Assembly (NCBI GenBank): GCA_964589145.1
Contig: CAZPSL010000213.1
Location: 1 to 54,980, forward strand
Reading direction: 5' to 3'
DNA length: 54,980 bases
From: an uncultured Anaerolineales bacterium
GTDB taxonomy: Bacteria > Chloroflexota > Anaerolineae > Anaerolineales > UBA11858
Shown here: positions 7,564-45,965 of the stretch, one piece after another
Numbering within the stretch: position 1 is the first letter of the stretch
Layout of the letters: each line of letters begins with the position of its first letter
Notes under the pieces: model-generated
Database searches by the model: none
What the model was told of the DNA's origin: nothing
Seen by the model: only the letters and a program-made list of their open reading frames with translations
Made by a program: the position numbers and the translations under genes

Positions 7564-9372
7564 ATGCAGCCCATCCTCAAACTGGACCTCACCACCGGAA
7601 CGACCGCCGCCTTCACCCCGCCCGATGCGTGGGTGCGCGCCTACCTCGGCGGCGCGTCGCTGGCGGCGCGCCTGCTCTACGAACACCTCACCCCCGGCCT
7701 CGACCCGCTCTCGCCGGAAGCCCCGCTCCTGTTTCTCACCGGCCCCCTGACGGGGACGGGCGGCCCCTCGGTGGGGCGGTTTGTGGTTTGCGGAAAATCT
7801 CCGGCCACCGGCCTGTGGGCGGAATCCAACTGCGGGGGCTTTTGGGGCCCGGAACTCCGCAAGGCGGGTTTCGACGGGCTGTGGATCACCGGACGGGCGG
7901 AATCGCCGGTGTACCTGTGTGTGGAGGCTGGCGCGGCGGAACTTCGGGATGCGCGTTCCCTCTGGGGGCTGGAAACCTACCAAACCCAGGAAGCGATTCG
8001 CTCCTCAATCAGCGGCAAAAAGCCGCGGGTGCTGACCATCGGCCCCGCAGGGGAGGTGCAAATCCCCTTTGCGCTCATCCTCACCGATCACGGACGCGTC
8101 GCCGGGCGCACCGGGCTGGGCGCGGTCATGGGGGCCAAAAATCTCAAGGCCGTCGCCGTGCGCGGGCGCGGCAAAATCCCCGTGGCAGACCCCGCCGCCT
8201 TCGCCCCCCTGCGTCTGGATGCCAACCGCACCCTGCGGGATGACAACCTGACGGCGGTGATGCGCGAACTCGGCACCGGCGGCGGAGCGGATTACTTCGA
8301 CTACCTGGGCGAGATGCCCAAGCGCTATTTTCAATCGGGCAAGTTCGCGGGTGCGGCCAGCGTCACCGGCGCAGCGATGGCGGAAAGCATCCTGACCGGC
8401 GTGAGCGCCTGCCATGCCTGCGTGATTGCCTGCGGGCGGGTGGTGACGCTGCCCGGCGAGGCCGCCCCCCGCAAAGGCCCGGAGTACGAGACGATGGTCG
8501 GCTTCGGCCCCAACCTGCTGATTGACGACCTCGCCGCCGTCACCCGCCTGGGCGAGCGCTGCGACCAACTGGGCATGGATACCATCAGCCTGAGCGGCAC
8601 CATCGGGCTTGCGGTCACGCTCTTTGAACGCGGCGTGATCACCGCGGCGGATACCGGCGGCCTGCGGCTGACCTGGGGCGACCCGGATTTGGCGCTGCAA
8701 CTGGTGGAGATGACCGCCCGGCGGGCGGGCTTCGGGGCGGAACTCGCGGCGGGTTCCCGTGCCCTGGGGCGGAAATTCGGCGTTGAGGGGGCTGCCGTTC
8801 AGGTCAACGGCCTCGAGGTGGCCTACCACGACCCGCGGGCGGCCTCCGGCATGGCGCTGACCTATGCCACCTCGCCGCGCGGCGCCTGCCACAACCAGTC
8901 CGATTACTTTATGGTGGACATTCTCGGTCAGGTGGAGCCGGAACTGGGCTTGCAGGTCTTCGACCGCCAGGCCGGGGCGGAAAAGGCGGCGAACGTGGCG
9001 CGTCACCAGAACTGGCGGACGGTTTTCAACGCCCTGGTGATGTGCATCTTCGCCAATGTGCCGCCGCAAACCGTGCTGGCACTGGTCAATGCCGCCGCGG
9101 GCGAGACCTACACCCTGGGGGATTTGCTGCAATCCGGAGAACGCGCCTGGAACCTGAAACGCCTGATCAACCGCAATCTGGGGCTGACCCGCGCCAGCGA
9201 CACGCTTCCCGAAGCCCTGCTGACACCTTACGAGGACGGCGGCTCGGCGGGGTACCGCATCCCCTTCGAGGAGATGCTCGCCGCCTACTACGCCGCCCGC
9301 GGCTGGGATTCCGGGACGGGGATGCCAACCGCGGAAAAATTGACAGAATTGGGGATTGAGCGGGCCGCGTAA
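7564..9372 (+). CDS. Aldehyde:ferredoxin oxidoreductase family (tungstopterin enzyme)
   Basis: 602-aa ORF. The N-terminal AFOR_N-like LKLDLTTG...YLGG..LAARLL is followed by GKSPATGLWAESNCGGFWG..L..AGFDGLWITG, and the large C-terminal domain has the expected length. Confidence 0.88.
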   Translation: MQPILKLDLTTGTTAAFTPPDAWVRAYLGGASLAARLLYEHLTPGLDPLSPEAPLLFLTGPLTGTGGPSVGRFVVCGKSPATGLWAESNCGGFWGPELRKAGFDGLWITGRAESPVYLCVEAGAAELRDARSLWGLETYQTQEAIRSSISGKKPRVLTIGPAGEVQIPFALILTDHGRVAGRTGLGAVMGAKNLKAVAVRGRGKIPVADPAAFAPLRLDANRTLRDDNLTAVMRELGTGGGADYFDYLGEMPKRYFQSGKFAGAASVTGAAMAESILTGVSACHACVIACGRVVTLPGEAAPRKGPEYETMVGFGPNLLIDDLAAVTRLGERCDQLGMDTISLSGTIGLAVTLFERGVITAADTGGLRLTWGDPDLALQLVEMTARRAGFGAELAAGSRALGRKFGVEGAAVQVNGLEVAYHDPRAASGMALTYATSPRGACHNQSDYFMVDILGQVEPELGLQVFDRQAGAEKAANVARHQNWRTVFNALVMCIFANVPPQTVLALVNAAAGETYTLGDLLQSGERAWNLKRLINRNLGLTRASDTLPEALLTPYEDGGSAGYRIPFEEMLAAYYAARGWDSGTGMPTAEKLTELGIERAA

Positions 9373-13359: not shown

Positions 13360-13986
13360 ATGACCATCTTTGATCGAATCATCCTTTTGCTGACCGGCCT
13401 CGCGGCCGCGTATCTTGTCTGGCGGTTTTGGGGGCGCTACTCAAAGGAGAAAAACCGCTACGATATTTACTACATGCTGGGCTTCGTGGTGCTGCTGGTC
13501 TCCGGCGTGCTGCTGATCTTCGGCGGATGGGGACTGCTCGACTCTCCGTATGTGCTGACCGTGGCAACGCTGATCCCCCTGGGCATTTCGATGGGGCTGA
13601 TGCACCAGTTTATGCCCAAATATGCGAAAGCGTATTCCTGGTTCTCGGTGGTGGGGTTGCTCGCAATCGCCGTTACCAGCATTGGGGATATGTCATTCAA
13701 GAGCATTGCCGTGCCGCTCTTCCACGGGGTTGCGGGGTTGATCATCTTCGCCCTGCCGCTTTACCTTTGCTTCGTGACGAAAACTGCCCCCCGAGGCTTT
13801 GGCGCGGTGGGCGTGGGCGGTTTGCTGATCGGCATCGGCGGAATGGCTTTAGCCTTTTACAAGGCCGGAAAACCACTGTTCGGTATCTTCACCGGGGAAT
13901 TCATCTTGATGATCCTGGCACCGCTGTTGCTGCTGATGACTCTTGCCTACGCCTGGGGCTTTGTGAAAGATATTCAGAGCAGATAA
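13360..13986 (+). CDS. Hypothetical about-6-TM membrane protein, paralogue A
   Basis: ORF 13006..13986 trimmed to the ATG at 13360 (RBS ggaggag). It aligns along its full length with the product of 18816..19421. Shared blocks: DRI(I/L)LL(L/I)TGL(A/L)AAY, LDSP(Y/W)V, HGVAGL(I/T)IF(A/L)LPL, VG(V/I)GG.LIG(I/V)GG..LAF.KAGKP. Confidence 0.75.
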   Translation: MTIFDRIILLLTGLAAAYLVWRFWGRYSKEKNRYDIYYMLGFVVLLVSGVLLIFGGWGLLDSPYVLTVATLIPLGISMGLMHQFMPKYAKAYSWFSVVGLLAIAVTSIGDMSFKSIAVPLFHGVAGLIIFALPLYLCFVTKTAPRGFGAVGVGGLLIGIGGMALAFYKAGKPLFGIFTGEFILMILAPLLLLMTLAYAWGFVKDIQSR

Positions 13987-14158: not shown

Positions 14159-15013
14159 ATGAAGAATTCGCGTACCATCATGATCGTTATTGCCGTCCTG
14201 GTAGGCCTGATGTTGGTTTTCATGGCATCCGGTATGATTGACGCTACGCAAGACAAGTTACTGAACAAAATGACCGAAGGCGCCACAATCGAGATGGGGG
14301 CGGTTCCCTCGTTGCGTATGTACGTCAGTTCAACCTGGCGTGGTGTTGAGGTAGTTGCCGGAATTGTGCTGCTCGTTACCGCTTATGCACTCTACCTTGA
14401 TAAAAAGTGGGCGTTTCCGGTTGCTATGACCAGTTTTGCTGCATTGCCGATTGGCAGTTTCTACATCAGCCTGGCCTATATGGTGAAGACCCGTGCTTAT
14501 GCACCCGCCTTCACCACCTTTACTGTCGGCTTGCTGGCCTTTTGGGCATTCATCTTTCTGGAGAAGAAAGGGAAGGAAGCATGGACCTTGTTCGTTCCCC
14601 TGACGCTAATGGGAATGATCGGTACGCAGGCTTTCTCGTTTGCCGAACACGGGCTGCGCGGGCTGTTGCCCGATAAAACTGCATCACTCATCAACCCGGC
14701 AGTTGCAATTTTGCGTTATTCCGGGCCAATTATGGCAATCACCGTTTTCCTGCTTTTTGTCGCCATTTACCAACTGGCGGCAGGCAAGGAGGCAGGCTGG
14801 TGGGTGGCTCTGGTGGCCGGTCTCAGCATGGCTGTTGGCGCATTCCCAGTTCACTTTGCCCGCCCTAAGGCATCAATGGCTTTGCCGGGCACTGCGGAGC
14901 CGTCTATCTTCACATCCACGTACTTCCTTGGCGGTATGCTGGGCGTGCTTCTGGTAGTTGTCCTTTTGATTCCTTTCTTCAAGAATCAACTTATGGACAC
15001 AGGCACGGAGTGA
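14159..15013 (+). CDS. Hypothetical multi-pass membrane protein (284 aa)
   Basis: ORF 14093..15013 trimmed to the ATG at 14159 (RBS ggagg). Roughly 8 hydrophobic segments. No family recognised. Confidence 0.7.
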   Translation: MKNSRTIMIVIAVLVGLMLVFMASGMIDATQDKLLNKMTEGATIEMGAVPSLRMYVSSTWRGVEVVAGIVLLVTAYALYLDKKWAFPVAMTSFAALPIGSFYISLAYMVKTRAYAPAFTTFTVGLLAFWAFIFLEKKGKEAWTLFVPLTLMGMIGTQAFSFAEHGLRGLLPDKTASLINPAVAILRYSGPIMAITVFLLFVAIYQLAAGKEAGWWVALVAGLSMAVGAFPVHFARPKASMALPGTAEPSIFTSTYFLGGMLGVLLVVVLLIPFFKNQLMDTGTE

Positions 15014-15267: not shown

Positions 15268-16809
15268 ATGCAATCTCTATCCAAACGTCTCGATTATCTC
15301 TTTCGCTCCACCCGAGGCCTGACGCTGATGGCTATCGCCGCGGTCGCCATCGTGACGGCACTCTGGGGCACGCTCTCCGGTCCGATGGTTGAGTGGGGGG
15401 TCCGGGACATCACCGTCAACCTGTTACATATGGACCTGATCCAGGCGGAGCGCGAGGGGCGCGTGATTATGCTCTACCACACCATTGCCATGACCATCAT
15501 CGCAATTGAAGTGTACTTCATCACCGAAATTGTCCCGATGAAACGCAACGAGCAGGTGATGATCAACGGCACCATTACGGTAGGGTACCTGACTGCGCTC
15601 ATCTTCGGCCTGTTGTTTGCCTATTTTGGGCACAACTTCACCTTTCACGGCTTGTTCCTTGTGGGGCAGTCGCTGATCTACTTTTCAGGCCTTTTGTTGA
15701 TGGCGGCGCTCTGGCCGTGGAAAAAAGAGTACCGCCTGCCGCCGGATTCGCCATATGCCCATCTCAAGAACGGTATTGATATGGAGCGGGCAGCGTTCTT
15801 TGTAATGGCAGGCGCTACGCTGCTTTCGGCCATGTGGGGCGCAGTGACCGGCTCATTCTGGTCTAATGGGCATGAAACCTTTCTGGCAGAAGACCTGATC
15901 CGCATTCCGCACAAAACCGCGCTGGAACACGCCATCATCGGGCATCTCCACATCATGCTCTCACTGGTGGCTGTAGGGATCACCCTGATCGTCGGCAAAT
16001 GGCTGGATTTCAAAGGCAAACTGCACTTCTGGGCAATGGTCTCGATGATTTTCGGCTCAATTGTGCTGACCGCCGGTGCACTTTCTATTGTCTGGCTGGA
16101 ATGGGCACATACCATCATCTACGTGGGTGCCGTCTTTGTGATGATGGCAGCCCTGCTTTATGTGATTTACTCGTGGGACAAACTGATCCACGACCGGCTC
16201 GCGGAACAGGGCATCGAAAAGGCCAATTTCTTCCAGAAAATCGCCGCTTTGCTGCACGATCCGCTCAAGTTCGGCTCCGGCTGGCAGATGGTCTTTATGA
16301 ACTTTACGGTCAGCGGTGTAGGGATTTTCATGGCAATCAAACTGGAAGACATCTTCCGGGTTTGGACACAGCGTGAGGAACGCATCACCCTGACCGGGCA
16401 CTGGCATATTCTGGCAGCCCTGATCGCCACCATCATCCTGCTCTACTACCTGGATTTGTCCGGCGTCAAGGGGAAAGCCCGCCAGTTCGCAGGTTGGGTC
16501 ATTATCATCGGGTCCGACATCGCCTTTGCCGGTGCAACCCTTTTCTCCATGAAACGGCTCTTTGTAGACGATGTACACCAGCAGCCGGTTGTGAGTACCA
16601 CAATGTTGATGATCGACATCGGGCTGGGAGTCGTCCTGGTGGCGCTGGCAATCTTCATGCTCTGGCGTCTGATCGACCTCTTCAAGGGAGATGGCGTCTG
16701 GAGCCGGGAATTCGACAACGAACGAGAAACCGTTGCAAAGCGGGAACTGGAGGAGCAAAAGCGCAGACTGAAAGAACTCCAGGAAACCTTGAAGGAGGTG
16801 TCCGAATGA
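15268..16809 (+). CDS. Hypothetical 12-TM membrane protein with periodic His/HxH motifs and a C-terminal coiled-coil tail
   Basis: 513-aa ORF with about 12 hydrophobic helices. Three related motifs: EREGRVIMLYH(71)T, LEHAIIGH(226)LH(228)IM and REERITLTGH(378)WH(380)IL, spaced about 152-155 residues apart. Tail: ERETVAKRELEEQKRRLKELQETLKEVSE. Confidence 0.75.
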   Translation: MQSLSKRLDYLFRSTRGLTLMAIAAVAIVTALWGTLSGPMVEWGVRDITVNLLHMDLIQAEREGRVIMLYHTIAMTIIAIEVYFITEIVPMKRNEQVMINGTITVGYLTALIFGLLFAYFGHNFTFHGLFLVGQSLIYFSGLLLMAALWPWKKEYRLPPDSPYAHLKNGIDMERAAFFVMAGATLLSAMWGAVTGSFWSNGHETFLAEDLIRIPHKTALEHAIIGHLHIMLSLVAVGITLIVGKWLDFKGKLHFWAMVSMIFGSIVLTAGALSIVWLEWAHTIIYVGAVFVMMAALLYVIYSWDKLIHDRLAEQGIEKANFFQKIAALLHDPLKFGSGWQMVFMNFTVSGVGIFMAIKLEDIFRVWTQREERITLTGHWHILAALIATIILLYYLDLSGVKGKARQFAGWVIIIGSDIAFAGATLFSMKRLFVDDVHQQPVVSTTMLMIDIGLGVVLVALAIFMLWRLIDLFKGDGVWSREFDNERETVAKRELEEQKRRLKELQETLKEVSE

Positions 16810-17792
16810 AACGCCTGATTCTCATTGCTGCCTTGTTGATTTTGTCCATCACTGCCATAGCCTGTTCATCTGGCGGTAGTGCGGGAGCAGTTAATCCACC
16901 CGCCCTGGACACCGGTATTGACCCCGAAGCCTGGGTGAGTATCCCTGCCGGAGAATTTCCTTATGGGATGCACGACCATATGACCCAGGTAGATGAGTAC
17001 GAAATCATGGTGACAGATGTCACCGTAGAGCAATACGCCAGGTTCCTGAACGAAGCCCTGGCTGCCGGCGCTATTTCCGTTGGTGCCGTAGATGTTGATG
17101 CCGGTTACAACGTCGAAGACGACGAACTGGTGGCCCCCCGCACCGTGGAAGGCGTGCACGGCTTTTATCCCGGTGATCGCTATGATGGTTACAAGCATGA
17201 GATGCAAATTCTGGAAGGAGAAAAACTGTACATTCCCCTGAACAGTGACGGCATTCGCATTTCCTTCAATGGTACCGAATTTACCTACCAACCGGAATAC
17301 GCCAACCACCCCATGACAATGGTTTCCTGGTACGGCGCAAACGCTTATTGTCAATACTACGACTGGCGGCTGCCGCGGGATGCCGAATGGGAAAAGGCCG
17401 CCCGCGGCACCGAAGTGGACGCCGAAGGGCACGGACGCCCCTTCCCCTGGGGTGAAGAGATTATGCCCAACAACGCCAATTATTATTCCTCGTTTGATCT
17501 CTTCGAGAAAATATCCGACAAACTGGGCAACACCACCCCGGTCGGGTTCTACAACGGGAAAACTTACGAGGGGTATGAAACCCTGGATTCCCCCAGCCCT
17601 TACGGTCTTTACGACATGGCCGGTAACGTCTGGCAGTGGGTTGGGGATGACTTCCCGAACATTCACTACCGCTACATGCGCGGCGGCAGTTACTACTCTT
17701 ACGAAGTGGATCTGCGCGTTTGGAAAATCAACACCGCCGGGCCGGAACACTACGCCCCGGATACCGGCTTCCGCTGTGCGCGGGATCACTGA
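16806..17792 (+). CDS. FGE/SUMF1-fold (formylglycine-generating-enzyme family) lipoprotein
   Basis: The ATG at 16806 overlaps the upstream stop (ATGA). Signal peptide MKRLILIAALLILSITAIAC. Family-typical blocks: HPMTMVSWYGANAYC, RLPRDAEWEKAARG, YDMAGNVWQWV, MRGGSYY and C-terminal GFRCARD. Confidence 0.85.
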   Translation: MKRLILIAALLILSITAIACSSGGSAGAVNPPALDTGIDPEAWVSIPAGEFPYGMHDHMTQVDEYEIMVTDVTVEQYARFLNEALAAGAISVGAVDVDAGYNVEDDELVAPRTVEGVHGFYPGDRYDGYKHEMQILEGEKLYIPLNSDGIRISFNGTEFTYQPEYANHPMTMVSWYGANAYCQYYDWRLPRDAEWEKAARGTEVDAEGHGRPFPWGEEIMPNNANYYSSFDLFEKISDKLGNTTPVGFYNGKTYEGYETLDSPSPYGLYDMAGNVWQWVGDDFPNIHYRYMRGGSYYSYEVDLRVWKINTAGPEHYAPDTGFRCARDH

Positions 17793-17874
17793 TATTCAAG
17801 CGGGTCATCCGGGGAACCTCGAATGACCCGCGTTCGTCCCATCTGCACGATTTTTGATCTTCCCCGGAGATAGT

Positions 17875-18729
17875 ATGAATATCATCAAAGCCAAATTCCG
17901 CATCTACTGGCCGCTTATCAAATCCTACCAGACTGCCCTGCTGCTGGTTACTGGCCTGACAGGCTACATGAGTGCCCGTTGTCCGGTCTTTAACATCTGG
18001 ACGCTGCTGGGCGTAGCGGGGAGTCTCTTCCTGGCAATTAGCGGTTCGACGGTGCTCAATATGTGGTACGACCGCGATATTGACGCCAAAATGCCCCGCA
18101 CCATGCACCGGCCGCTTCCCGCTGGTCAAATCACCCCAAAAGAAACCCTGCGGATGGGATTGATTCTCTCGGCATTAGGCGTCCTTTGGGCGTTGGCAAT
18201 TGACCCGCTTTACGGTGTAATCGTCTTCGCCGGGCTGTTCTTTGACGTGATCGTCTACACCATCTGGCTCAAACGCCGCACCGCCTGGAGCATCGTCTGG
18301 GGCGGCATCTCCGGGGCAATGCCGATCATGGCAGGGCGTGCATTGGGAATCGGTTACATTGACTGGGTGGGAATCGCCCTGGGGCTGGGCATCCTCTTCT
18401 GGATTCCGACCCATATCCTCACCTTCAGCATGCGCTACTACGATGACTACAAGGCTGCGGGGGTCCCCACCTTCCCGTCCACCTACGGGTTCGCGGCCAC
18501 CCGCGCGATCATCGCCCTCTCCAGCGTGCTGGCCGCGGTTGCGATGGGGGCAGCAGCCTACGGCATCGGCATGACCGTAGGCTACCTGCGGTTGATGATC
18601 GTACTGTCAGGCGGCCTGCTGGTGCTGGCAATTATCACGATGGTCAAACCATCCGAGCGTGCCAACTTTGGATTGTTCAAGTACGCCTCGCTTTACATGC
18701 TTGGCGCAATGCTGCTGATGACCCTGTAA
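17875..18729 (+). CDS. ctaB: Protoheme IX farnesyltransferase (heme O synthase)
   Basis: ORF trimmed to the ATG at 17875 (RBS ggaga). UbiA-fold protein with the CtaB/CyoE signature NMWYDRDIDAKMPRTMHRPLP. Confidence 0.88.
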   Translation: MNIIKAKFRIYWPLIKSYQTALLLVTGLTGYMSARCPVFNIWTLLGVAGSLFLAISGSTVLNMWYDRDIDAKMPRTMHRPLPAGQITPKETLRMGLILSALGVLWALAIDPLYGVIVFAGLFFDVIVYTIWLKRRTAWSIVWGGISGAMPIMAGRALGIGYIDWVGIALGLGILFWIPTHILTFSMRYYDDYKAAGVPTFPSTYGFAATRAIIALSSVLAAVAMGAAAYGIGMTVGYLRLMIVLSGGLLVLAIITMVKPSERANFGLFKYASLYMLGAMLLMTL

Positions 18730-18815: not shown

Positions 18816-19421
18816 ATGAAAAAGATTTCCGTTCTCGACCGAATTTTACTCCTGATCACCGGTTTGCTGGCTGCCTACCAGATTGTTGTGATGGAAGGGA
18901 ACAGCCCCCTGGCAACCTGGTCGTACACCATTGCCTTTGGAGTGCTGCTGGTTGCCGGATTGCTGATCATCATCATGGGTTTTGAAGTGCTCGACAGCCC
19001 CTGGGTGGTCATCGTCTCAACCATCATCCCGTTAAGCCTCTCCCTGGGGCTGGTCGCCGACTACTACCAGGCCTGGACAACCCCTTACCTGATTTTTGTA
19101 GTCGTCGGCTTCCTGGCAATCGTTTTCACCCGTCTCGCCAAACCGGAGACCAAACTGGCAACCTTCACCCTGGCCTTCGTCCACGGGGTTGCCGGGCTGA
19201 CCATCTTCCTGCTGCCGCTCTTCCTGGCTTTTGGCGGCACCCCTACGATGGGCTTCGCCCTGGTCGGCATTGGCGGCGCGCTGATTGGCGTCGGCGGGTT
19301 GCTGCTGGCCTTCCTCAAAGCCGGAAAACCTATCCTGCCCCAAAATACCATCCTGACCGTTCTCCCCGGCCTGCTGTTGCTGATGACCATCTGTTTTGTC
19401 GCCGGGTTCCACTTCGCATAA
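18816..19421 (+). CDS. Hypothetical about-6-TM membrane protein, paralogue B
   Basis: 201-aa ORF with RBS aggag. Collinear similarity to 13360..13986. Confidence 0.75.
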   Translation: MKKISVLDRILLLITGLLAAYQIVVMEGNSPLATWSYTIAFGVLLVAGLLIIIMGFEVLDSPWVVIVSTIIPLSLSLGLVADYYQAWTTPYLIFVVVGFLAIVFTRLAKPETKLATFTLAFVHGVAGLTIFLLPLFLAFGGTPTMGFALVGIGGALIGVGGLLLAFLKAGKPILPQNTILTVLPGLLLLMTICFVAGFHFA

Positions 19422-29419: not shown

Positions 29420-30322
29420 ATGTGGCACGCCCTGTGGTTATTCATTCGCTTCTCACGCCCGCTGGCACTGCTCGGCGGGATGTTGACCTTTGCATTGGGA
29501 ACGGGAATTGCCCGTTACCTGGGAATTACGCTGAACTGGCATCTGTATTTTTTGGGACAACTATGGACAACCAGCCTGCAATTGTTTGCACACTATTTTG
29601 GCGAGTATTTTCGTCCGCCCGCCATTCCCGCCAGAAATACTCCTTTTTTGCGGCAGAACAGCACACAAGCAGGAAAAAAGGTCCCGCAGCGGGAGGCCGC
29701 CCTGTGGGGAGGCCTGGTCATGCTGACGGCCGCAGCCTCGCTGGCGGTGATGTTGCGTGCTGCCGGAGCGAATTCCACTGCCCTGCTGGTAATGTTCCTC
29801 ATCTTTGCGGCCGGGCTGGTCTACACCGTGCCGCCAATGCGTTTAGCCGAAACCGGTTACGGCGAACTCGTGCTCTCCGTTACTGTTGCCGGGCTTATTC
29901 CGGCGCTGGCTTTCGCGCTGCAAACCGGCGAACTCCACCGGCTGGTGGTAATGAGCACTTTTCCGCTTATTCTGCTTTGCATCGCGATGTACATCGTTTT
30001 CGATCTTCCGGCCTATGCAAACAATCTGAAGCACGAACAACTTACGCTGCTCACACGTTTGGGCTGGCAACGTGCCATGACCCTTCACAACCTGCTGATT
30101 CTGACGGCTTACATCCTGCTGGCAATGGCAATGCGTTTCGGCTTTCCACCGTCAATTGGGCTGCCTGCACTTCTCGCGCTGCCCCTGGGGCTGCTTCAAA
30201 TCTGGTATATGACACGCATCGCCGCCGGAGCAAAGCCTAACTGGGCAATTCTGGGATGGGTGGCTGTCGCCGTATGCGCTGCCACCGCCTATTTGCTGAC
30301 ATTTTCTTTTTGGACAAAGTAA
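29420..30322 (+). CDS. UbiA/MenA-fold membrane protein lacking both Asp-rich motifs
   Basis: 300-aa ORF with about 8-9 TM segments, collinear with the MenA-type layout. It reads LFAHYFGEY where N-D-x-x-D is expected, and LPAYANNLKHEQLTLLTRLG where D-x-x-x-D..G.xTL..RLG is expected. Confidence 0.6.
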   Translation: MWHALWLFIRFSRPLALLGGMLTFALGTGIARYLGITLNWHLYFLGQLWTTSLQLFAHYFGEYFRPPAIPARNTPFLRQNSTQAGKKVPQREAALWGGLVMLTAAASLAVMLRAAGANSTALLVMFLIFAAGLVYTVPPMRLAETGYGELVLSVTVAGLIPALAFALQTGELHRLVVMSTFPLILLCIAMYIVFDLPAYANNLKHEQLTLLTRLGWQRAMTLHNLLILTAYILLAMAMRFGFPPSIGLPALLALPLGLLQIWYMTRIAAGAKPNWAILGWVAVAVCAATAYLLTFSFWTK

Positions 30323-40424: not shown

Positions 40425-40506
40425 AAGTTCTCCACTCGCCGACTCGCTGACTCGCATTGTACGCCAGAAACCGCCAATCCGCAAACAAACTTCGCAGCCG
40501 GAAAAT

Positions 40507-40672
40507 GGGTGTAAGCAAAAGGCGTAGGACGCCGGTGTTCCCCCCTCCTCGCCCTCCCAAAATTTTCCGCTTTGGTTCCCCTCTCCCACAGAGAGAGGGG
40601 TTAGGGGTGAGGGAAAACTTACCCAAGGCAAGAGCAAACGGCACTCAATTTCTGCGTCTTTTGCTTGCCTCC
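40507..40672. mobile_element. MITE-like element (166 bp, diverged TIRs) in the divergent LOG / methyltransferase spacer
   Basis: Ends are gggtgtaagcaaaaggcgtaggac ... atttctgcgtcttttgcttgcctcc. Internal ccctctcccacagagagagggg module. Confidence 0.65.
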
Positions 40673-40714
40673 GAGCGCGGCCTGTCGTTGACACCCCCCA
40701 TCCCTGACGGTAGA

Positions 40715-41725
40715 ATGAACAGCATGAGCCGTACTGATAACAGCGAAGTAAAAGAACCAGCCGCGAAATATGCCCGATCAGATACATTGCCATCTTTTTT
40801 TGGGCAGCCTTTGCTTCGGGGAAAATTTTTATTGGACGGTGATTCGCATCCCGATTTAGAATCGCCGCAGTGCTTTTATGTACATCCAAACGGTGAGATT
40901 TGGATAGGTGATGCCATTGCATGGTTGCAAACTTTGGAAACGGAATCAGTAAACTTGGTGGTTGCTGACCCTCCTTACAACATCAAGAAAGCCCAGTGGG
41001 ACCACTTTAACTCCCATCGGGATTACGTTAACTGGTCTTTACAATGGATTGAACAAGCCGCTCGTGTGCTGAAACCCGATGGCACCTTGTACATTTTCGG
41101 GTTTTCGGAAATTTTGGCTGATTTGAAGCAGCCTGCTATGGAGTTTTTTCACAGTGTTCGTTGGCTAGTGTGGCATTACAAGAATAAAGCGAATCTGGGA
41201 AACGATTGGGGGCGGTCTCACGAAAGTGTACTCCATTTTCGCAAGAGCAAAACATTCACCTTCAATGTTGATAATGTTCGCATCCCATACGGGCGGCATA
41301 CTCTAAAGTATCCGGATCATCCGCAGGCAGAGACAAGTCAATACGGGAAAAATGCAGCCAACAAAAATCGTCGCTGGCAGCCCAATCCGAAAGGAGCAAA
41401 ACCCAGAGATGTGATTGAAATTCCCACGACGTGCAACGGTATGCATGAAAAAACCCCACATCCTACGCAGAAACCGGAAGAACTCCTGCGAAAATTCGTT
41501 CTTGCATCATCCAACCCAGGTGATTTGGTGATTGATCCCTTTTTAGGTTCCGGTACAACAGTGGTAGTTGCGGAGCAACTCAAACGGCAGTGGAAAGGAT
41601 GCGATATTTCGCTTGAGTACTGTCAATGGGCTGCCAATCGCATTGAATTAGTGGAGAACTGGTCGATAGAAAAGTGGATTGCTTATGACCGCCGTAACGC
41701 GGAGCGCAGGAAGTCGATACGATGA
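40715..41725 (+). CDS. Beta-class DNA methyltransferase (DPPY motif; probably N6-adenine, N4-cytosine not excluded)
   Basis: ORF 40457..41725 trimmed to the ATG at 40715. Motif IV VVADPPYN precedes motif I VIDPFLGSGTTVVVA, giving the IV-to-I order. The region is visibly AT-richer than its flanks. Confidence 0.85.
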   Translation: MNSMSRTDNSEVKEPAAKYARSDTLPSFFGQPLLRGKFLLDGDSHPDLESPQCFYVHPNGEIWIGDAIAWLQTLETESVNLVVADPPYNIKKAQWDHFNSHRDYVNWSLQWIEQAARVLKPDGTLYIFGFSEILADLKQPAMEFFHSVRWLVWHYKNKANLGNDWGRSHESVLHFRKSKTFTFNVDNVRIPYGRHTLKYPDHPQAETSQYGKNAANKNRRWQPNPKGAKPRDVIEIPTTCNGMHEKTPHPTQKPEELLRKFVLASSNPGDLVIDPFLGSGTTVVVAEQLKRQWKGCDISLEYCQWAANRIELVENWSIEKWIAYDRRNAERRKSIR

Positions 41726-42678
41726 ATATAATTACACTGAGCGATTTGCAGGCCAGCGTTCGAGATAGATCTGCTTTTAACAAGTTATCGGATTATCGCC
41801 AATTGGGGCAGGCTTTTTTGTCGTTGTTGGAATTGAGCCAGCCGACGCGAATTATTTCCCCATCTCAAAATCATTACATTTTTTATCAGTATGACGAGGA
41901 AACGTCTTATCGCATTACTCGTCCCTTGAATACACAGTTGTTTATCGAAAATGTGGACGAATTTACGCGTGCGTTTGACCGTTTTGGAGATTTCCTTGCC
42001 GACCTACGAAAATACGAGGATAAAGCGGCAACCCGCCCGGATGCTGAGAATTATTTGCGTTCTGGTGAAATTAATCGTGTGGTTTACACTGCCCAGCAGA
42101 TTGTAGGCTGTATCGGTGATTCTTTTCCCAGTCCTAATCAGTCCCGCAAGCGCGTAGGACAAATTTTTGAGCAGTTGGTTAGGCTTATCATACATGAAAC
42201 GGGGGTGCATTGTGACACTCGACGTATTACGGTTCCTATCCCTGGCGTTGATAATTATCAGATGTCGTATGAACTTGATTTGGTCTTTTCGCGAGATAAA
42301 GCGATTCTGACGTCAGAAACCAAGTATATTCACCCATCCGAAGTAGTCGGTTCGGTGAAAACAACCAGCAAGGACAGACTGGATAAGATATTTTTAGATA
42401 AATACTTGCTGACGCAATTTTTGGGACGTGAAATACCAGTTATTGCTATTTTCTTGCATGATGTGCAGCGTGCCAAACGCGGCAACAGCATATTTGGGAT
42501 TAATGCCACATTTAAAAGCAACCATTTCCTTGGATACTCAGTAGCACTTAATCGTTTGGATGGTGTTTATTACGTAGACCCGCGCCCGGAGATGGTGACA
42601 AATCCGCGTTTGAGTGCACAAATTCGAGATTTTCAGTATTTTTTGGTTTATGATCTGTGGACTTTATCCGCTCGGTGA
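41722..42678 (+). CDS. Hypothetical protein; candidate cognate type II restriction endonuclease
   Basis: 318-aa ORF whose ATG overlaps the methyltransferase stop (ATGA) and shares its AT-rich composition. Possible PD-(D/E)XK-like core YELDLVFS...VVGSVKTTSKDR. No family recognised. Confidence 0.55.
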   Translation: MNIITLSDLQASVRDRSAFNKLSDYRQLGQAFLSLLELSQPTRIISPSQNHYIFYQYDEETSYRITRPLNTQLFIENVDEFTRAFDRFGDFLADLRKYEDKAATRPDAENYLRSGEINRVVYTAQQIVGCIGDSFPSPNQSRKRVGQIFEQLVRLIIHETGVHCDTRRITVPIPGVDNYQMSYELDLVFSRDKAILTSETKYIHPSEVVGSVKTTSKDRLDKIFLDKYLLTQFLGREIPVIAIFLHDVQRAKRGNSIFGINATFKSNHFLGYSVALNRLDGVYYVDPRPEMVTNPRLSAQIRDFQYFLVYDLWTLSAR

Positions 42679-42683
42679 CACGA

Positions 42684-45600
42684 ATGAACCCCCTCCTTGA
42701 CGGTCTCAACCCCCAGCAGCAGCAGGCGGTGATGGCCGGAACCGGGCCGGTGCTGGTACTGGCGGGCCCCGGCTCCGGCAAAACCCGCGTACTCACGCAC
42801 CGCATCGCCTATCTGATTGGCTACCTGGGCGTGCGTCCTTACCACGTCCTGGCGGTGACCTTCACCAACAAGGCCGCCCGCGAGATGGAAGCCCGCGTCG
42901 AAAACCTGCTGGGGCAGTCCACCCGCGGGCTGACTTTGGGAACTTTCCACGCGGTTTGCGCCCGCATTCTGCGCCGCGAGGCCGAACACCTGCCCTTTGA
43001 CAGCAACTACGTCATCTTCGATGCCGACGACCAACTCTCCATCGTCAAGCGGGTGCTCAAAGACCTGAACGTCAACGACAAACTTTACCGTCCCCAGGGC
43101 GTCCACGCGGCCATTTCCAACGCCAAAAACGAACTGATTTTGCCCGATGCCTTCCCCGTGCAGACCTACCGGGACGAGGTGATCAAGCGCGTCTACGAGC
43201 GTTATCAGCAAGCCCTGCTGACCTCCAACGCCCTCGATTTTGACGACCTCCTGCTGTGGACCGCCCATCTGCTGGAGGAGCAGCCTGCCGTCCGCGAGCG
43301 TTACGCCCGCCGTTACGAGCACATCCTCGTGGATGAATTTCAGGATACCAACATGGCGCAGTACACCCTGCTGCGCCACCTGGCATCGTTCCACCGCAAC
43401 ATCTTCGTCGTCGGGGATGCCGACCAGTGTTTCCCGCCGGAGACGCCCGTGCAGACGCCGGAAGGCGCGCAGCCCATCGCGGATTTGCAAGCCGGTGAAC
43501 AGGTGATTGCCGCCAGCGGGCGCGGTTCCGTGCTGGCAGCGCGGGTCAACCGCGTTGGCAAACGCCATTTTGAAGGCGAACTGGTTGCCGTAAAAACGCA
43601 AAAGGGCCTGTCGTTCCGTGCCACGCCCAACCATATCGTGTTTACCCGCCTGGGGCTGAACCCCGGCCTGCACTACGTTTATCTGATGTACCGCCGGGAT
43701 AAAGGATACCGCATCGGTGTTGCCTCACATGCTCGCAGTGACGGGACGAATGCGCACAACCAAATCGGGCTGAGGGTTCGCAGCAACCAGGAGAAGGCCG
43801 ATAAAATGTGGGTTCTGCGCGTTTGCGAGGACCGTGCCGATGCCTATTACTGGGAATCGTTTTATGCGTTCACTTATGGCGTTCCGACAACGGTTTTCGA
43901 TGCTGCCGGGCGCAGCATGAAATTCACACAAGAGAAAATTGACCGGCTGTACGCCCAAATTGACACGCGCACCAATGCCCGCCGCCTGATGGAGGATTTG
44001 GGGCTGGATGAAAACTACCCCCATTACCGCCCGCAAGGGACTTTTCGCAACCTGGTCAACCTGCGCTATTTTGGTGATGGACGCAAAACAAAGTCCTCGC
44101 CCTGGCACGCGCATCGGGTGGATTTGTGGAGCAGCGAAGACGAACTCGCTCAAAAACTGAAATCTCAAGGGTATCACCCCCGCATTCGCAGCCGCAACAA
44201 CTGGCGCATCGGGTTCAGCCGTCTGCATTACGATGACATCCACGCGGTTGCCCGCAAACTCAGCGATGACCTCGGCGGAGCGGAAATTGTGGTCGGCGCG
44301 TTTCTGGTGGATAAAGGTGATTCGCCGCTCTCGCCGCGCTTTGCCCTGATGCCTGCCAGCCAACTTCACCCCTCGATGATCCTGGCGGTAGCGCAGGACG
44401 GCGAAATCGTGGAGGATGTGATCACCGAAGTTCACCGCGAACCGTATGAAGGCGATGTGTACGATTTGGAAGTGGATAACCTGCACAATTACCTCGCGGG
44501 CGGCATTGTGGTTCACAATTCCATCTACCGCTGGCGGGGCGCCGATTACCGCAACGTCCTGCGCTTTGAGCAGGATTTCCCCGATGCGCAGGTCATCCTG
44601 CTGGAGCAGCACTACCGCTCCACCCAGACCATCCTCGACACGGCGATGGCGGTGATTGACCGCAACCCCAACCGCAAGCGCAAGCAACTTTTCACCGAGC
44701 GCGGCCGCGGCCCCAAGGTCATCCTGCGCGAGACTTACGACGACCGCGAGCAGGCCGCCTTTGTGGTGGAGACCATCGCCAAACAGGTTGCCCGCCAAAA
44801 CCGCCAGCCCGGCGATTTCGCCGTCATGTACCGCACCAACGCCCAATCCCGCGTGCTGGAGGAAGCCTTTCTCGCCGCCGGATTGCCCTACAAACTGGTC
44901 GGGGCGCAGCGGTTTTACGGACGCCGCGAAATCAAGGACGTGATCGCCTACCTGCGGCTGGTTCACAACCCCAACGACCAGGTCAGCCTCGACCGGGTGA
45001 TCAACACTCCCACCCGCGGGATTGGCAGCAAAACCCAGGTCGCCCTGCGCACTGAAGCCCGGAAGTTGAATCTCACCCCTGGGGAACTGCTGCTCACCCT
45101 GGCGGCGGGCGACGAATCCCCGCAGGCGGAGCGGTTCACCCGCCGGGCGCTTCTGGCGCTCTCGCGGTTCGCGAAGATGCTCTCCACCTGGATTGCGCTC
45201 AGGGCCGAACTTCCTCCCCGCGACCTGATGGACAAAATCCTGGAAGATACGAATTACCGCACTTACATTGACGACGGCACGGATGAGGGCCGCAGCCGCT
45301 GGGAAAACGTGGTTGAACTGCGCCGGTTGGCGGCGGAATACCGTGACGAGGGGATGGAAGCCTTTTTGGAAGATGTTGCCCTGGTTTCCGACCAGGATAC
45401 CCTCGACGCGGATGCCAACGTCCCCACCCTGCTGACCCTGCACGCCGCCAAGGGGCTGGAGTTCCCCGTGGTGTTTATCGTCGGGCTGAACGACGGCACG
45501 CTGCCGCACATCCGCTCCTTCGACGAACCCGAATCGATGCAGGAGGAGCGCCGCCTGTTTTACGTTGGCATCACCCGCGCCAAAGATCAACTTTACCTGC

Positions 45601-45965
45601 TCCATTCGCTCAACCGTTACACCTACGGTTACGCCGAACCCGCCGAACCCTCCCGCTTCATCGCCGACATCCCGGATGACCTGCTCGATGACGCCCGCCC
45701 CGGACGCCAAAAGCGGAAGTCCCGCCGCGCGGCAGCCGGTTACGAATCCTGGACTTTGCCCGCCCCGAAGGGCCGCACAGCCCGAAAGAAGCCCAAGCCC
45801 AAAATGCAGTACAGCCCCGGCATGAAGGTCGAGCACAGCGTTTGGGGCGAGGGCATGGTACTCAACGCCAAACTGGACGGCGACGACGAAATCGTGGACA
45901 TTTTCTTCGACAGCGTAGGCCTGAAGCGGGTTGTGGCGGCAATGGCGAAGTTAAAAATCAAATGA
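42684..45965 (+). CDS. pcrA: PcrA/UvrD-type ATP-dependent DNA helicase, intein-containing precursor
   Basis: ORF trimmed to the ATG at 42684 (MNPLLDGLNPQQQQAV...). Walker A AGPGSGKT, VDEFQDTN, and motif III split as VVGDADQ / SIYRWRGA. The extein totals about 729 aa. Confidence 0.9.
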   Translation: MNPLLDGLNPQQQQAVMAGTGPVLVLAGPGSGKTRVLTHRIAYLIGYLGVRPYHVLAVTFTNKAAREMEARVENLLGQSTRGLTLGTFHAVCARILRREAEHLPFDSNYVIFDADDQLSIVKRVLKDLNVNDKLYRPQGVHAAISNAKNELILPDAFPVQTYRDEVIKRVYERYQQALLTSNALDFDDLLLWTAHLLEEQPAVRERYARRYEHILVDEFQDTNMAQYTLLRHLASFHRNIFVVGDADQCFPPETPVQTPEGAQPIADLQAGEQVIAASGRGSVLAARVNRVGKRHFEGELVAVKTQKGLSFRATPNHIVFTRLGLNPGLHYVYLMYRRDKGYRIGVASHARSDGTNAHNQIGLRVRSNQEKADKMWVLRVCEDRADAYYWESFYAFTYGVPTTVFDAAGRSMKFTQEKIDRLYAQIDTRTNARRLMEDLGLDENYPHYRPQGTFRNLVNLRYFGDGRKTKSSPWHAHRVDLWSSEDELAQKLKSQGYHPRIRSRNNWRIGFSRLHYDDIHAVARKLSDDLGGAEIVVGAFLVDKGDSPLSPRFALMPASQLHPSMILAVAQDGEIVEDVITEVHREPYEGDVYDLEVDNLHNYLAGGIVVHNSIYRWRGADYRNVLRFEQDFPDAQVILLEQHYRSTQTILDTAMAVIDRNPNRKRKQLFTERGRGPKVILRETYDDREQAAFVVETIAKQVARQNRQPGDFAVMYRTNAQSRVLEEAFLAAGLPYKLVGAQRFYGRREIKDVIAYLRLVHNPNDQVSLDRVINTPTRGIGSKTQVALRTEARKLNLTPGELLLTLAAGDESPQAERFTRRALLALSRFAKMLSTWIALRAELPPRDLMDKILEDTNYRTYIDDGTDEGRSRWENVVELRRLAAEYRDEGMEAFLEDVALVSDQDTLDADANVPTLLTLHAAKGLEFPVVFIVGLNDGTLPHIRSFDEPESMQEERRLFYVGITRAKDQLYLLHSLNRYTYGYAEPAEPSRFIADIPDDLLDDARPGRQKRKSRRAAAGYESWTLPAPKGRTARKKPKPKMQYSPGMKVEHSVWGEGMVLNAKLDGDDEIVDIFFDSVGLKRVVAAMAKLKIK
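43428..44519 (+). other. Intein (364 aa) inserted in helicase motif III
   Basis: Starts with Cys (CFPPETPVQTPEG...). Block B TPNH. Blocks F/G GDVYDLEVDNLHNYLAGGIVVHN, followed by extein +1 Ser. A central domain of about 200 aa or more of unclear type is present. Confidence 0.88.

Follow-up and report, generated by a model that had tools for sequence, protein, structure and literature searches.

A 54,980-nucleotide stretch of DNA from an uncultured Anaerolineales bacterium (contig CAZPSL010000213.1; the whole stretch is called the window here) carries a gene for a membrane protein of an unannotated family whose 12 transmembrane helices are predicted to adopt the fold of subunit I of the haem-copper oxidases (HCOs). 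We lean, at slightly better than even chances, toward the view that this protein is the catalytic subunit of a new, deeply divergent branch of the HCO superfamily, with haem O and a rearranged three-histidine metal site. An original prediction, made from the sequence and its translated reading frames, had described a triplicated four-helix unit with histidines on helices 2, 6 and 10, and had suggested that the protein might resemble subunit I of the HCOs and nitric oxide reductases (NORs) either through very remote kinship or by convergence. The predicted fold and a collinear profile alignment now support that relationship.

15268..16809, + strand: the gene in question, encoding a 513-residue, 12-transmembrane protein with a predicted HCO-subunit-I-like fold, from an unannotated family.

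The open reading frame (ORF) has an AGGAG ribosome-binding site 9 nt 5' of its ATG, and homologues span all 513 residues. The family is large: at E <= 1e-3 it comprises at least 3,179 clusters in a set of 5.8 billion proteins, with 340 representatives at 50% clustering, and 383 loci were found in a collection of species-representative genomes. Anaerolineae living in digesters and sediments have it in abundance, and several Asgard lineages carry it as well, taxon names here being labels attached to metagenome-assembled genomes (MAGs). Nearly all members are named 'hypothetical protein', with one cluster (P0109, JGI) labelled 'MFS family permease', and no consistent Pfam domain is found in the 84 members that we aligned, which come from bacteria and Asgard archaea at 22-82% identity. 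The protein itself has no match in Pfam or NCBIfam, the sequences in the PDB, HCOs included, match neither the protein (phmmer) nor the family profile (hmmsearch), and the Pfam COX1 profile (PF00115) recognises 0 of the 84 members at E <= 1.

The argument for an oxidase fold begins with structure prediction. Hydropathy gives 12 hydrophobic segments and the AlphaFold model 12 long helices, which bears out the helix count first proposed. An initial AlphaFold model, built on 30 close homologues, reached a predicted local distance difference test score (pLDDT) of 72, and only subunit I of the Thermus thermophilus ba3 oxidase matched it with a real TM-score (0.46-0.57). A second, AlphaFold2 model built on the 84 sequences is confident (pLDDT 94.1; predicted TM-score, pTM, 0.93), and HCO subunit I is its sole meaningful fold match among those listed. 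When this model was searched by Foldseek against 350,542 PDB chains, meaningful TM-scores among the 50 matches listed went only to catalytic subunits of the HCO superfamily (0.44-0.58 over ~505-543 columns, probability 0.8-1.0), bacterial aa3 among them together with the following.

cbb3 CcoN (8smr_E, 3mk7_A): TM-score 0.48-0.56, with the best Foldseek E-value, 1.4e-3.
ba3 of T. thermophilus (for example 3s3b_A, 4gp8_A): TM-score 0.51-0.58, the best of them (0.54-0.58) over ~520-540 columns.
Mitochondrial aa3 COX1: TM-score 0.44-0.50, with one partial Tetrahymena match at 0.30-0.37.
cNOR NorB (3o0r_B): TM-score 0.47-0.52.
qNOR (6fwf): TM-score 0.44, query-normalised.

Other proteins among the 50 matches (G-protein-coupled receptors, MATE, MurJ, pyrophosphatase and complex I antiporter-like subunits) had TM-scores of 0.25 or less. 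By prediction, then, the protein has the 12-helix core of three four-helix arcs that characterises HCO subunit I, as judged from its matches to the A, B and C families, cNOR and qNOR. The Foldseek matches have modest E-values, from 1.4e-3 to 0.7, and a root-mean-square deviation (rmsd) of ~7-8 Å, so that the models indicate a topology shared with the HCOs and a structure that has diverged far from them. It could be objected that the likeness is convergent or a modelling artefact, and that the protein is an unrelated 12-transmembrane transporter or permease whose histidines bind the transported metal: AlphaFold training included HCO structures, HMMER and Pfam give no HCO signal, the hhalign comparison described below is borderline, and P0109 bears its permease name. 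We consider this very improbable, since MFS, MATE and MurJ reach TM-scores of at most 0.25 against 0.44-0.58 for every HCO family, two independent models built on different alignments give the same answer, four ligand histidines fall in register over a collinear 370-column alignment, and a transporter would leave the link to a haem O synthase without a rationale. An MFS permease in the strict sense, with two six-helix bundles, was rejected: 8d2t_A reaches a TM-score of 0.19 against the first model, and there is no Pfam MFS match.

On the N-terminal side, the loops have 12 lysines and arginines, with 10 more in the C-terminal tail, versus 5 on the other side, and because of this tally we place both termini in the cytoplasm. 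With the N-terminus inside, the seven conserved histidines all fall within the outer membrane half. They and the tail are encoded as follows.

15478..15480, + strand: H71 on helix 2, conserved in 84 of 84 sequences, at the same depth as H380; proposed axial ligand of a low-spin haem.
15646..15648, + strand: H127 at the outer start of helix 4, 84 of 84; the repeat-equivalent of H281.
15943..15951, + strand: H226-L-H228 on helix 6, 84 of 84 and 83 of 84; proposed ligands of a non-haem metal.
16108..16122, + strand: H281-T-I-I-Y285, where helix 8 begins on the outer side; H281, 83 of 84, is proposed to complete the non-haem metal site as its third ligand, and Y285 stands at i+4.
16399..16407, + strand: H378-W-H380 on helix 10, 84 of 84 each; H378 is proposed as the proximal ligand of a high-spin haem, and H380 as the partner of H71 on the low-spin haem.
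16693..16806, + strand: charged helical tail, cytoplasmic by the predicted topology (helix 477-512 in the model), confined to the close bacterial clade and missing from distant homologues.

The histidines singled out originally sit where they were said to, with Y70-H71 on helix 2, H226-L-H228 on helix 6 and H378-W-H380 on helix 10, at spacings of 155/157 and 152 residues, and all five are conserved across two domains of life: H71, H226, H378 and H380 in every one of the 84 sequences and H228 in 83. What that set overlooked is that H127 and H281, at the outer starts of helices 4 and 8, are conserved equally well (84/84 and 83/84). Y70 and E371 are likewise invariant, Y119, E208, R65 and W379 are conserved in 83/84 and R212 in 80/84, while the protein's other ten histidines vary. 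Two further details fared less evenly. Of the acidic residues said to precede the motifs, only E371 is conserved (throughout), together with R65, and E220 is variable; and the charged C-terminal tail, although present in the protein, is a feature of its close bacterial relatives only. One degenerate member (P0270, 492 residues) has E208Y, H228R, H281N and W379P and keeps H71, H127, H226, H378 and H380. Counted in residues from the outer end of the helix, H71 and H380 lie at a depth of 12, H228 and H378 at 10, H226 at 8, H127 at 3 and H281 at 1, and the conserved polar residues R65, E208, R212 and E371 are on the outer side too.

Ever since its first structures were solved, oxidase subunit I has been recognised as pseudo-threefold symmetric, and in this family the triplication is visible in the sequence. 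The units are these.

15268..15741, + strand: repeat unit 1, residues 1-158, helices 1-4, with Y70-H71 and H127.
15742..16221, + strand: repeat unit 2, residues 159-318, helices 5-8, with E208, H226, H228, H281 and Y285.
16222..16692, + strand: repeat unit 3, residues 319-475, helices 9-12, with E371, H378, W379 and H380.

With the deep alignment, hhalign supports all three pairs, as the proposal of a triplicated four-helix unit would have it: units 2 and 3 at a probability of 96.6% (E 5.8e-10, 106 columns), units 1 and 3 at 84.7% (E 6.6e-6, 130 columns) and units 1 and 2 at 36% (E 3.8e-4, 81 columns), against reversed-sequence controls at E 0.037-0.31. Using close homologues only, the pairing of units 2 and 3 is still supported (E 7.9e-7) and the two pairings of unit 1 are weak. 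The repeats put H71, H228 and H380 in one column, L69, H226 and H378 in another, and H127 with H281. Unit 3 best matches the helix IX-XII third of the HCOs (E 1.2e-3), whereas canonical oxidases, in an eight-sequence alignment cut into the same thirds, give no repeat signal (E 0.04-0.08). That the triplication can still be detected suggests that some traits of the ancestor from which the fold arose, with its triplicated four-helix unit, survive in the family.

How the histidines correspond to those of the HCOs was addressed by aligning the family profile with eight subunit I sequences, one of them bona fide ba3-type (E 1e-99 to T. thermophilus ba3), through which ba3 numbering (H72/H233/Y237/H282/H283/H384/H386) was transferred. 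Three hhalign runs gave collinear alignments of 370-375 columns, with E-values of 8.8e-5, 4.3e-4 and 1.6e-2. In all three, H281 falls on ba3 H282 and H378/H380 on ba3 H384/H386 (the HCO H366/H368 columns), so the helix-X HxH motif of the HCOs is present; ba3 H233, the CuB ligand on helix VI, lies under H228 in two runs and under H226 in one. The canonical CuB/FeB site takes one histidine from helix VI and a pair from helix VII, and here the helix-VI histidine is in place, H281 stands for the first of the pair, and the position of the second (ba3 H283) is T, K, M or Y. The protein had been predicted not to be a canonical oxidase, and the absence of the helix-VII pair and of a COX1 match agrees, with the refinement that one half of that pair has a counterpart. 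On this alignment, the third metal-binding histidine could come from the extra histidine of helix 6, in a non-canonical arrangement. There is no tyrosine four residues after H226 or H228, where M230 and S/T/A232 stand instead. The native score of 47.9 compares with 22.8 for the reversed sequence and at most 38.3 for eight block-shuffles; because this margin is small and the significance borderline, we regard sequence homology to the HCOs as likely, not proven.

The neighbourhood of the gene bears on its function, and most of it forms a conserved module.

13360..13986, + strand: memA, a paralogue of memA2, directly 5' of the gene in many loci; the start is approximate (the first in-frame ATG matching homologues is at ~13360).
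14159..15013, + strand: memB, a 285-residue polytopic membrane protein between memA and the gene; start approximate.
16806..17792, + strand: a lipoprotein with the sulfatase fold of formylglycine-generating enzyme (FGE) (Pfam PF03781, E 2.7e-36), like the FGE paralogue pFGE.
17854..18729, + strand: haem O synthase CtaB/CyoE (TIGR01473, 221.6 bits against an equivalog cut-off of 210.3).
18816..19421, + strand: memA2, 201 residues, ~7 transmembrane helices, from an unannotated family with one conserved histidine (H123).

We examined 80 homologous bacterial loci, in which the gene is flanked by the FGE-like gene, ctaB and memA. The FGE-like gene lies directly 3' in 80/80, a haem O synthase is present in 72 (most absences are contig ends), and a memA2-type gene for a seven-helix protein follows ctaB in ~69. 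Relatives of memB occur in 30/80, at varying distance and 21-62% identity, and do not belong to the core. A Caldithrix MAG has the whole module twice in tandem (L074:8001-17485; the 12-helix protein, FGE-like gene and ctaB, with memA genes after the first copy). The memA/memA2 family numbers > 4,000 clusters of ~200-residue proteins with ~7 transmembrane helices, a glycine-rich sixth helix and one conserved histidine; it is common to bacteria and Asgard archaea, always adjoins the gene for the 12-helix protein, matches no family in Pfam or NCBIfam, and has no annotated homologue. A tblastn search with E. coli CyoB found no canonical oxidase in the window or the 80 loci, Pfam found no respiratory, CuA, cytochrome c or copper-chaperone genes among 36 window ORFs, and no COX2 or cupredoxin family occurs among the window neighbours or in eight gene-called homologous loci.

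The FGE-like lipoprotein is tied to the 12-helix protein at several levels. The stop codon of the one overlaps the start of the other (ATGA), and a GGAGG within the 3' end of the upstream gene points to translational coupling. In one natural fusion (P0122, 785 residues) the two are joined through an extra, 13th transmembrane segment, which confirms that they work together; because the fusion passes through this added helix, the FGE-like domain must be extracytoplasmic. Its best relative in the PDB is pFGE/SUMF2 (1y4j), and it has no cysteine pair after the RGGS motif (RGGSYYSYEVDLRVW). True formylglycine-generating activity was rejected on the missing Cu-binding pair, though the domain fold itself is present. 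We propose that the lipoprotein is a periplasmic cap subunit.

The divergent half of the family is found in Asgard archaea (Hodarchaeales, Kariarchaeaceae, Heimdall-, Thor- and Odinarchaeota), where the module runs memA homologue, 12-helix protein, UbiA/haem O synthase, with no FGE-like gene. The memA homologues 5' of the gene (L089:7193-7927 and L093:7311-7985) match at E 3e-20 and 6e-16. Of five Asgard loci sampled, four have the haem O synthase directly 3', at 41-44% identity to the CtaB of the window, and four have an HxlR-type regulator just upstream of the module on the opposite strand. In a Thor locus (L091:1-5970) and an Odin locus (L094:9150-15330) the module adjoins an NrfA-like multihaem cytochrome c and cytochrome c maturation genes; these two loci have the same four genes, for the NrfA-like protein, a ~740-residue CcsA/ResC-type protein, a ~740-residue GlcNAc-2-epimerase-like protein and a ~130-residue protein. 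The FGE-like gene is missing also from a second bacterial clade. A member of it (L097; 448 residues, 39% identical to the protein) has asparagine four residues after the H281 equivalent, and its same-strand upstream cluster (L097:1499-6957) includes an ODP/metallo-beta-lactamase gene of flavodiiron-like type and a DUF438-hemerythrin-PAS gene, surroundings that look like an oxidative/nitrosative stress island. NifU, ferredoxin, methyltransferase and DUF166 genes also lie upstream at this locus, and GAF sensor kinases downstream.

The window encodes an aldehyde:ferredoxin oxidoreductase (7564-9372, + strand), one of a family of tungsten enzymes typical of anaerobes, and this suggests that the host lives anaerobically. 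The complete genome of Ca. Brevefilum fermentans has been reported to lack cytochrome oxidase and electron-transport complexes (PMC5481317), and yet the module is present in full in a MAG of B. fermentans (L020). In Asgard archaea, canonical terminal oxidases have been reported only in Kariarchaeaceae, Gerdarchaeales and Hodarchaeales (10.1101/2025.11.07.685452), and the family reaches beyond these groups into Thor- and Odinarchaeota. According to a preprint, all Heimdallarchaeia lineages encode haem o biosynthesis (10.1101/2024.07.04.601786). Given the adjacency of ctaB, the presence of the module in B. fermentans with no reported oxidase, its occurrence in Thor and Odin lineages and the parallel with the cyoABCDE operon, the 12-helix protein is most simply taken to be the user of the haem O that the neighbouring synthase makes.

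Use of haem O could mean something other than catalysis with it. The protein might act on the product of CtaB, as an alternative enzyme like haem A synthase or as an insertase or carrier of haem O, much as ctaA goes with ctaB. Haem A synthase is a duplicated four-helix bundle, and its histidine pattern resembles that of helices 2/4 and 6/8 here, conserved histidines lying on those helices of successive four-helix units. The linkage to ctaB is tight in both domains, and haem O synthase is often syntenic with haem A synthase (PMC12808453). We nevertheless hold this to be quite unlikely. Structure prediction gives it the fold of HCO subunit I, with no haem A synthase among the 50 matches listed, the Pfam COX15-CtaA profile matches 0/84 members at E <= 1, and a consumer of haem O or haem A would still be required, when none is reported in B. 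fermentans, nor canonical oxidases in Thor and Odin. Haem A synthase proper (CtaA/Cox15, an eight-helix duplicated bundle) we rejected on the 12 transmembrane helices, the missing COX15-CtaA match and the absence of a fold match among those listed.

Another possibility, also unlikely in our judgement but a shade less so, is that the protein is a multi-haem b- or o-type membrane cytochrome with haems held in or between the repeats, no binuclear site, and pure electron transfer as its task, for example from quinol to a periplasmic partner, the acceptor being the FGE-like lipoprotein or, in Asgard archaea, a multihaem cytochrome c. Such a protein might well have histidines quasi-symmetric across three repeats and lack the canonical histidine pair and active-site Tyr/Glu, and bacteria do have an obligatory periplasmic partner, fused in one case, as the Thor and Odin loci have adjoining NrfA-like cytochromes. 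The depths of the conserved histidines are harder to accommodate: with H127 and H281 only 1-3 residues from the helix ends, those of helices 2, 6 and 10 at 8-12, and all in the outer half, the geometry is poor for bis-histidine haems within a repeat and for electron transfer across the membrane. The supposed acceptor, moreover, resembles inactive pFGE without the Cu-binding cysteine pair and is missing in Asgard archaea and the second bacterial clade. A dedicated haem O synthase is also typical of O2-reducing active sites, and this too speaks against a mere electron carrier.

We therefore return to a divergent HCO catalytic subunit and ask how it might work. In our model, 12 helices take up the subunit-I arrangement, the step for which the structure prediction is confident. 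A low-spin haem would be held by H71 on helix 2 and H380 on helix 10, and a high-spin haem by H378, this second one most likely haem O from the co-transcribed synthase. Beside it a non-haem metal, Cu or Fe, would have as ligands the two helix-6 histidines, H226 and H228, and H281 from the top of helix 8, in place of the canonical one histidine of helix VI and two of helix VII. The conserved histidines and the polar R65, E208, R212 and E371 are all on the outer side, and for this reason protons, and the substrate too, would probably come from the periplasm, which would make the reaction a scavenging and not a proton-pumping one. The substrate may be a small oxidant, O2 or NO, with electrons probably from quinol or, at some Asgard loci, from a multihaem cytochrome c. 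The seven-helix memA product may be a core accessory subunit, and in the bacterial clade of the window the non-catalytic pFGE-like lipoprotein may cap the periplasmic face, where canonical enzymes carry subunit II. On these models the enzyme probably scavenges O2 or NO in anaerobes, and the stress context of its neighbours (HxlR, ODP/flavodiiron-like, hemerythrin-PAS and NrfA-like genes) counts in favour.

A number of observations weigh against the proposal. HMMER and Pfam give no HCO signal, the hhalign E-values (8.8e-5 to 1.6e-2) depend on the alignment and on settings such as the match-state rule, with one block-shuffle reaching 1.4e-3, and a TM-score of ~0.5 with an rmsd of 7-8 Å denotes a strongly diverged structure. 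H71, though invariant and as deep as H380, stands 7 residues away from the helix-II histidine column of the HCOs in hhalign. The second helix-VII histidine is missing, and there is neither a tyrosine at the HPEVY position nor a glutamate at the NOR HxxxE position. The module has no cupredoxin or cytochrome c subunit, and the lack of canonical oxidases in the hosts is taken from published reports.

The residue four positions after H281 divides the family. It is tyrosine in 28/84 members, including Y285 of the protein itself, and asparagine in 52/84. All 21 members at least 50% identical to the protein, and some Thor and Odin members, have H281-x-x-x-Y285, whose i/i+4 spacing matches that of the His-Tyr cross-link motif of the HCOs. 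By analogy with the tyrosine rule for O2 reduction (PMC11214002), we speculate that the H-x-x-x-Y and H-x-x-x-N subtypes could correspond to O2 and NO chemistry. A bolder extension, which we find tempting but doubtful, is that the family branched off early within the oxidase fold, still keeping in its sequence the signature of the triplicated ancestor, and is a third type of terminal reductase, dependent on haem O and without subunit II, which would give 'strict anaerobes' a hidden use of O2 (H-x-x-x-Y) or NO (H-x-x-x-N).

Why might this family matter? It is large and wholly unannotated, and with a triplication visible in its sequence (E to 6e-10) and putative ligand histidines in equivalent places, it becomes testable how the oxidase fold arose and where this family stands relative to the known ones. 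If the protein reduces O2 or NO, metabolic reconstructions regarded as 'oxidase-free', such as that of Ca. Brevefilum fermentans, would be incomplete, and a hidden capacity of this kind would extend to Anaerolineae, Calditrichota and Thor-, Odin- and Heimdallarchaeia, hosts that take in the nearest kin of eukaryotes. The debate on the oxygen tolerance of the archaeal ancestors of eukaryotes would then gain a new candidate enzyme, and the occurrence of haem O synthase in lineages without a recognisable haem O or haem A enzyme would be accounted for. To the extent of our literature search, the pairing of a pFGE-like lipoprotein, as obligate partner, with a membrane subunit of respiratory type also appears to be new.

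Elsewhere in the window, a second, more divergent UbiA-family prenyltransferase (29420-30322, + strand; E 4e-11) lies by glycosyltransferase genes and directly 5' of MoeA, and has no relation to the module. At 40457-42678 (+ strand), an N6/N4 DNA methylase gene precedes a 318-residue ORF with no Pfam match, and the two may form a restriction-modification pair. At 42657-45965 (+ strand), a UvrD/PcrA-type helicase of 1,102 residues carries an intein (Hint, Intein_splicing) between its N- and C-terminal halves.

Having set out the case for an oxidase fold, the next question is how the family stands beside systems already described. The ba3 subunit I gives the best TM-scores and has a core of near-identical length; its H233, H282, H384 and H386 align with H228 (or H226), H281, H378 and H380, and an invariant tyrosine of its helix III-IV loop aligns with Y119 in one of two alignments. 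Both ba3 and our protein have their histidine-bearing positions in the outer membrane half, where HCO cofactors are found. Compared with ba3, the family has an extra helix-6 histidine, giving HxH, and the extra invariant H127, but no tyrosine at the H233/Y237 cross-link position, and its module has no CuA subunit II. More generally, the O2-reducing HCOs of the A, B and C families have a cross-linked active-site tyrosine (in HxxxY on helix VI, or on helix VII in the C family), and those of A and B a cupredoxin-fold subunit II beside subunit I; neither is found in this family and its examined loci. The cNOR and cbb3 enzymes have cytochrome c subunits, none of which is encoded in the module, and cbb3 and the NORs use haem b at the active site, where the module instead carries a haem O synthase. 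The NORs resemble the family in having no helix-VI tyrosine and no obvious conserved polar path from the cytoplasm, the family's conserved glutamates being on the outer side. Their FeB is bound by the three canonical histidines and a helix-VI glutamate (PMC11214002), whereas here the residue at i+4 from the helix-6 histidines is M or S/T/A, and E208 and E371 stand elsewhere. In E. coli cyoABCDE and the Bacillus ctaB-ctaCDEF operon, a haem O synthase is co-transcribed with catalytic and small polytopic subunits, as here, but those operons include a subunit II where this module has, in bacteria only, the pFGE-like lipoprotein. No subunit III or IV is found in the module by sequence, memA not having been compared directly with either.

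Other divergent HCO families (eNOR, sNOR, gNOR, nNOR and NOD) came to light through sequence phylogenomics (Murali et al. 2024, PMC11214002). They too have mostly uncultured environmental hosts, altered active-site residues and a missing tyrosine. The three active-site histidines are kept in all known HCO families except gNOR (PMC11214002), and gNOR shows that a CuB/FeB histidine can be replaced. The B-family-related eNOR, sNOR, nNOR and gNOR have homologues of a CuA-type second subunit, as the C family has cytochrome c subunits (PMC11214002); the present family differs in being invisible to COX1 profiles, in having no CuA-type subunit and in its arrangement of ligands. The FGE-like partner also has precedents, for it is a lipoprotein like PorK/GldK and shares with pFGE/SUMF2 (1y4j) both the FGE-sulfatase fold and the lack of the FGE cysteine pair. 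pFGE is a catalytically inactive FGE paralogue. The partner differs from these relatives in being coupled to, and once fused with, an oxidase-like membrane protein. To the extent of our literature search, which did not cover most subscription journals, we found no description of the 12-helix family, nor of a pFGE-like lipoprotein paired with an oxidase-like membrane subunit. The family shares with the HCOs the predicted fold and the helix-X HxH, and it lacks a COX1 profile match, the helix-VII histidine pair, the active-site Tyr/Glu and a subunit II; it therefore falls within no HCO family described so far, and the description that suits it best is a new family, very far diverged, with the HCO superfold and new partners.

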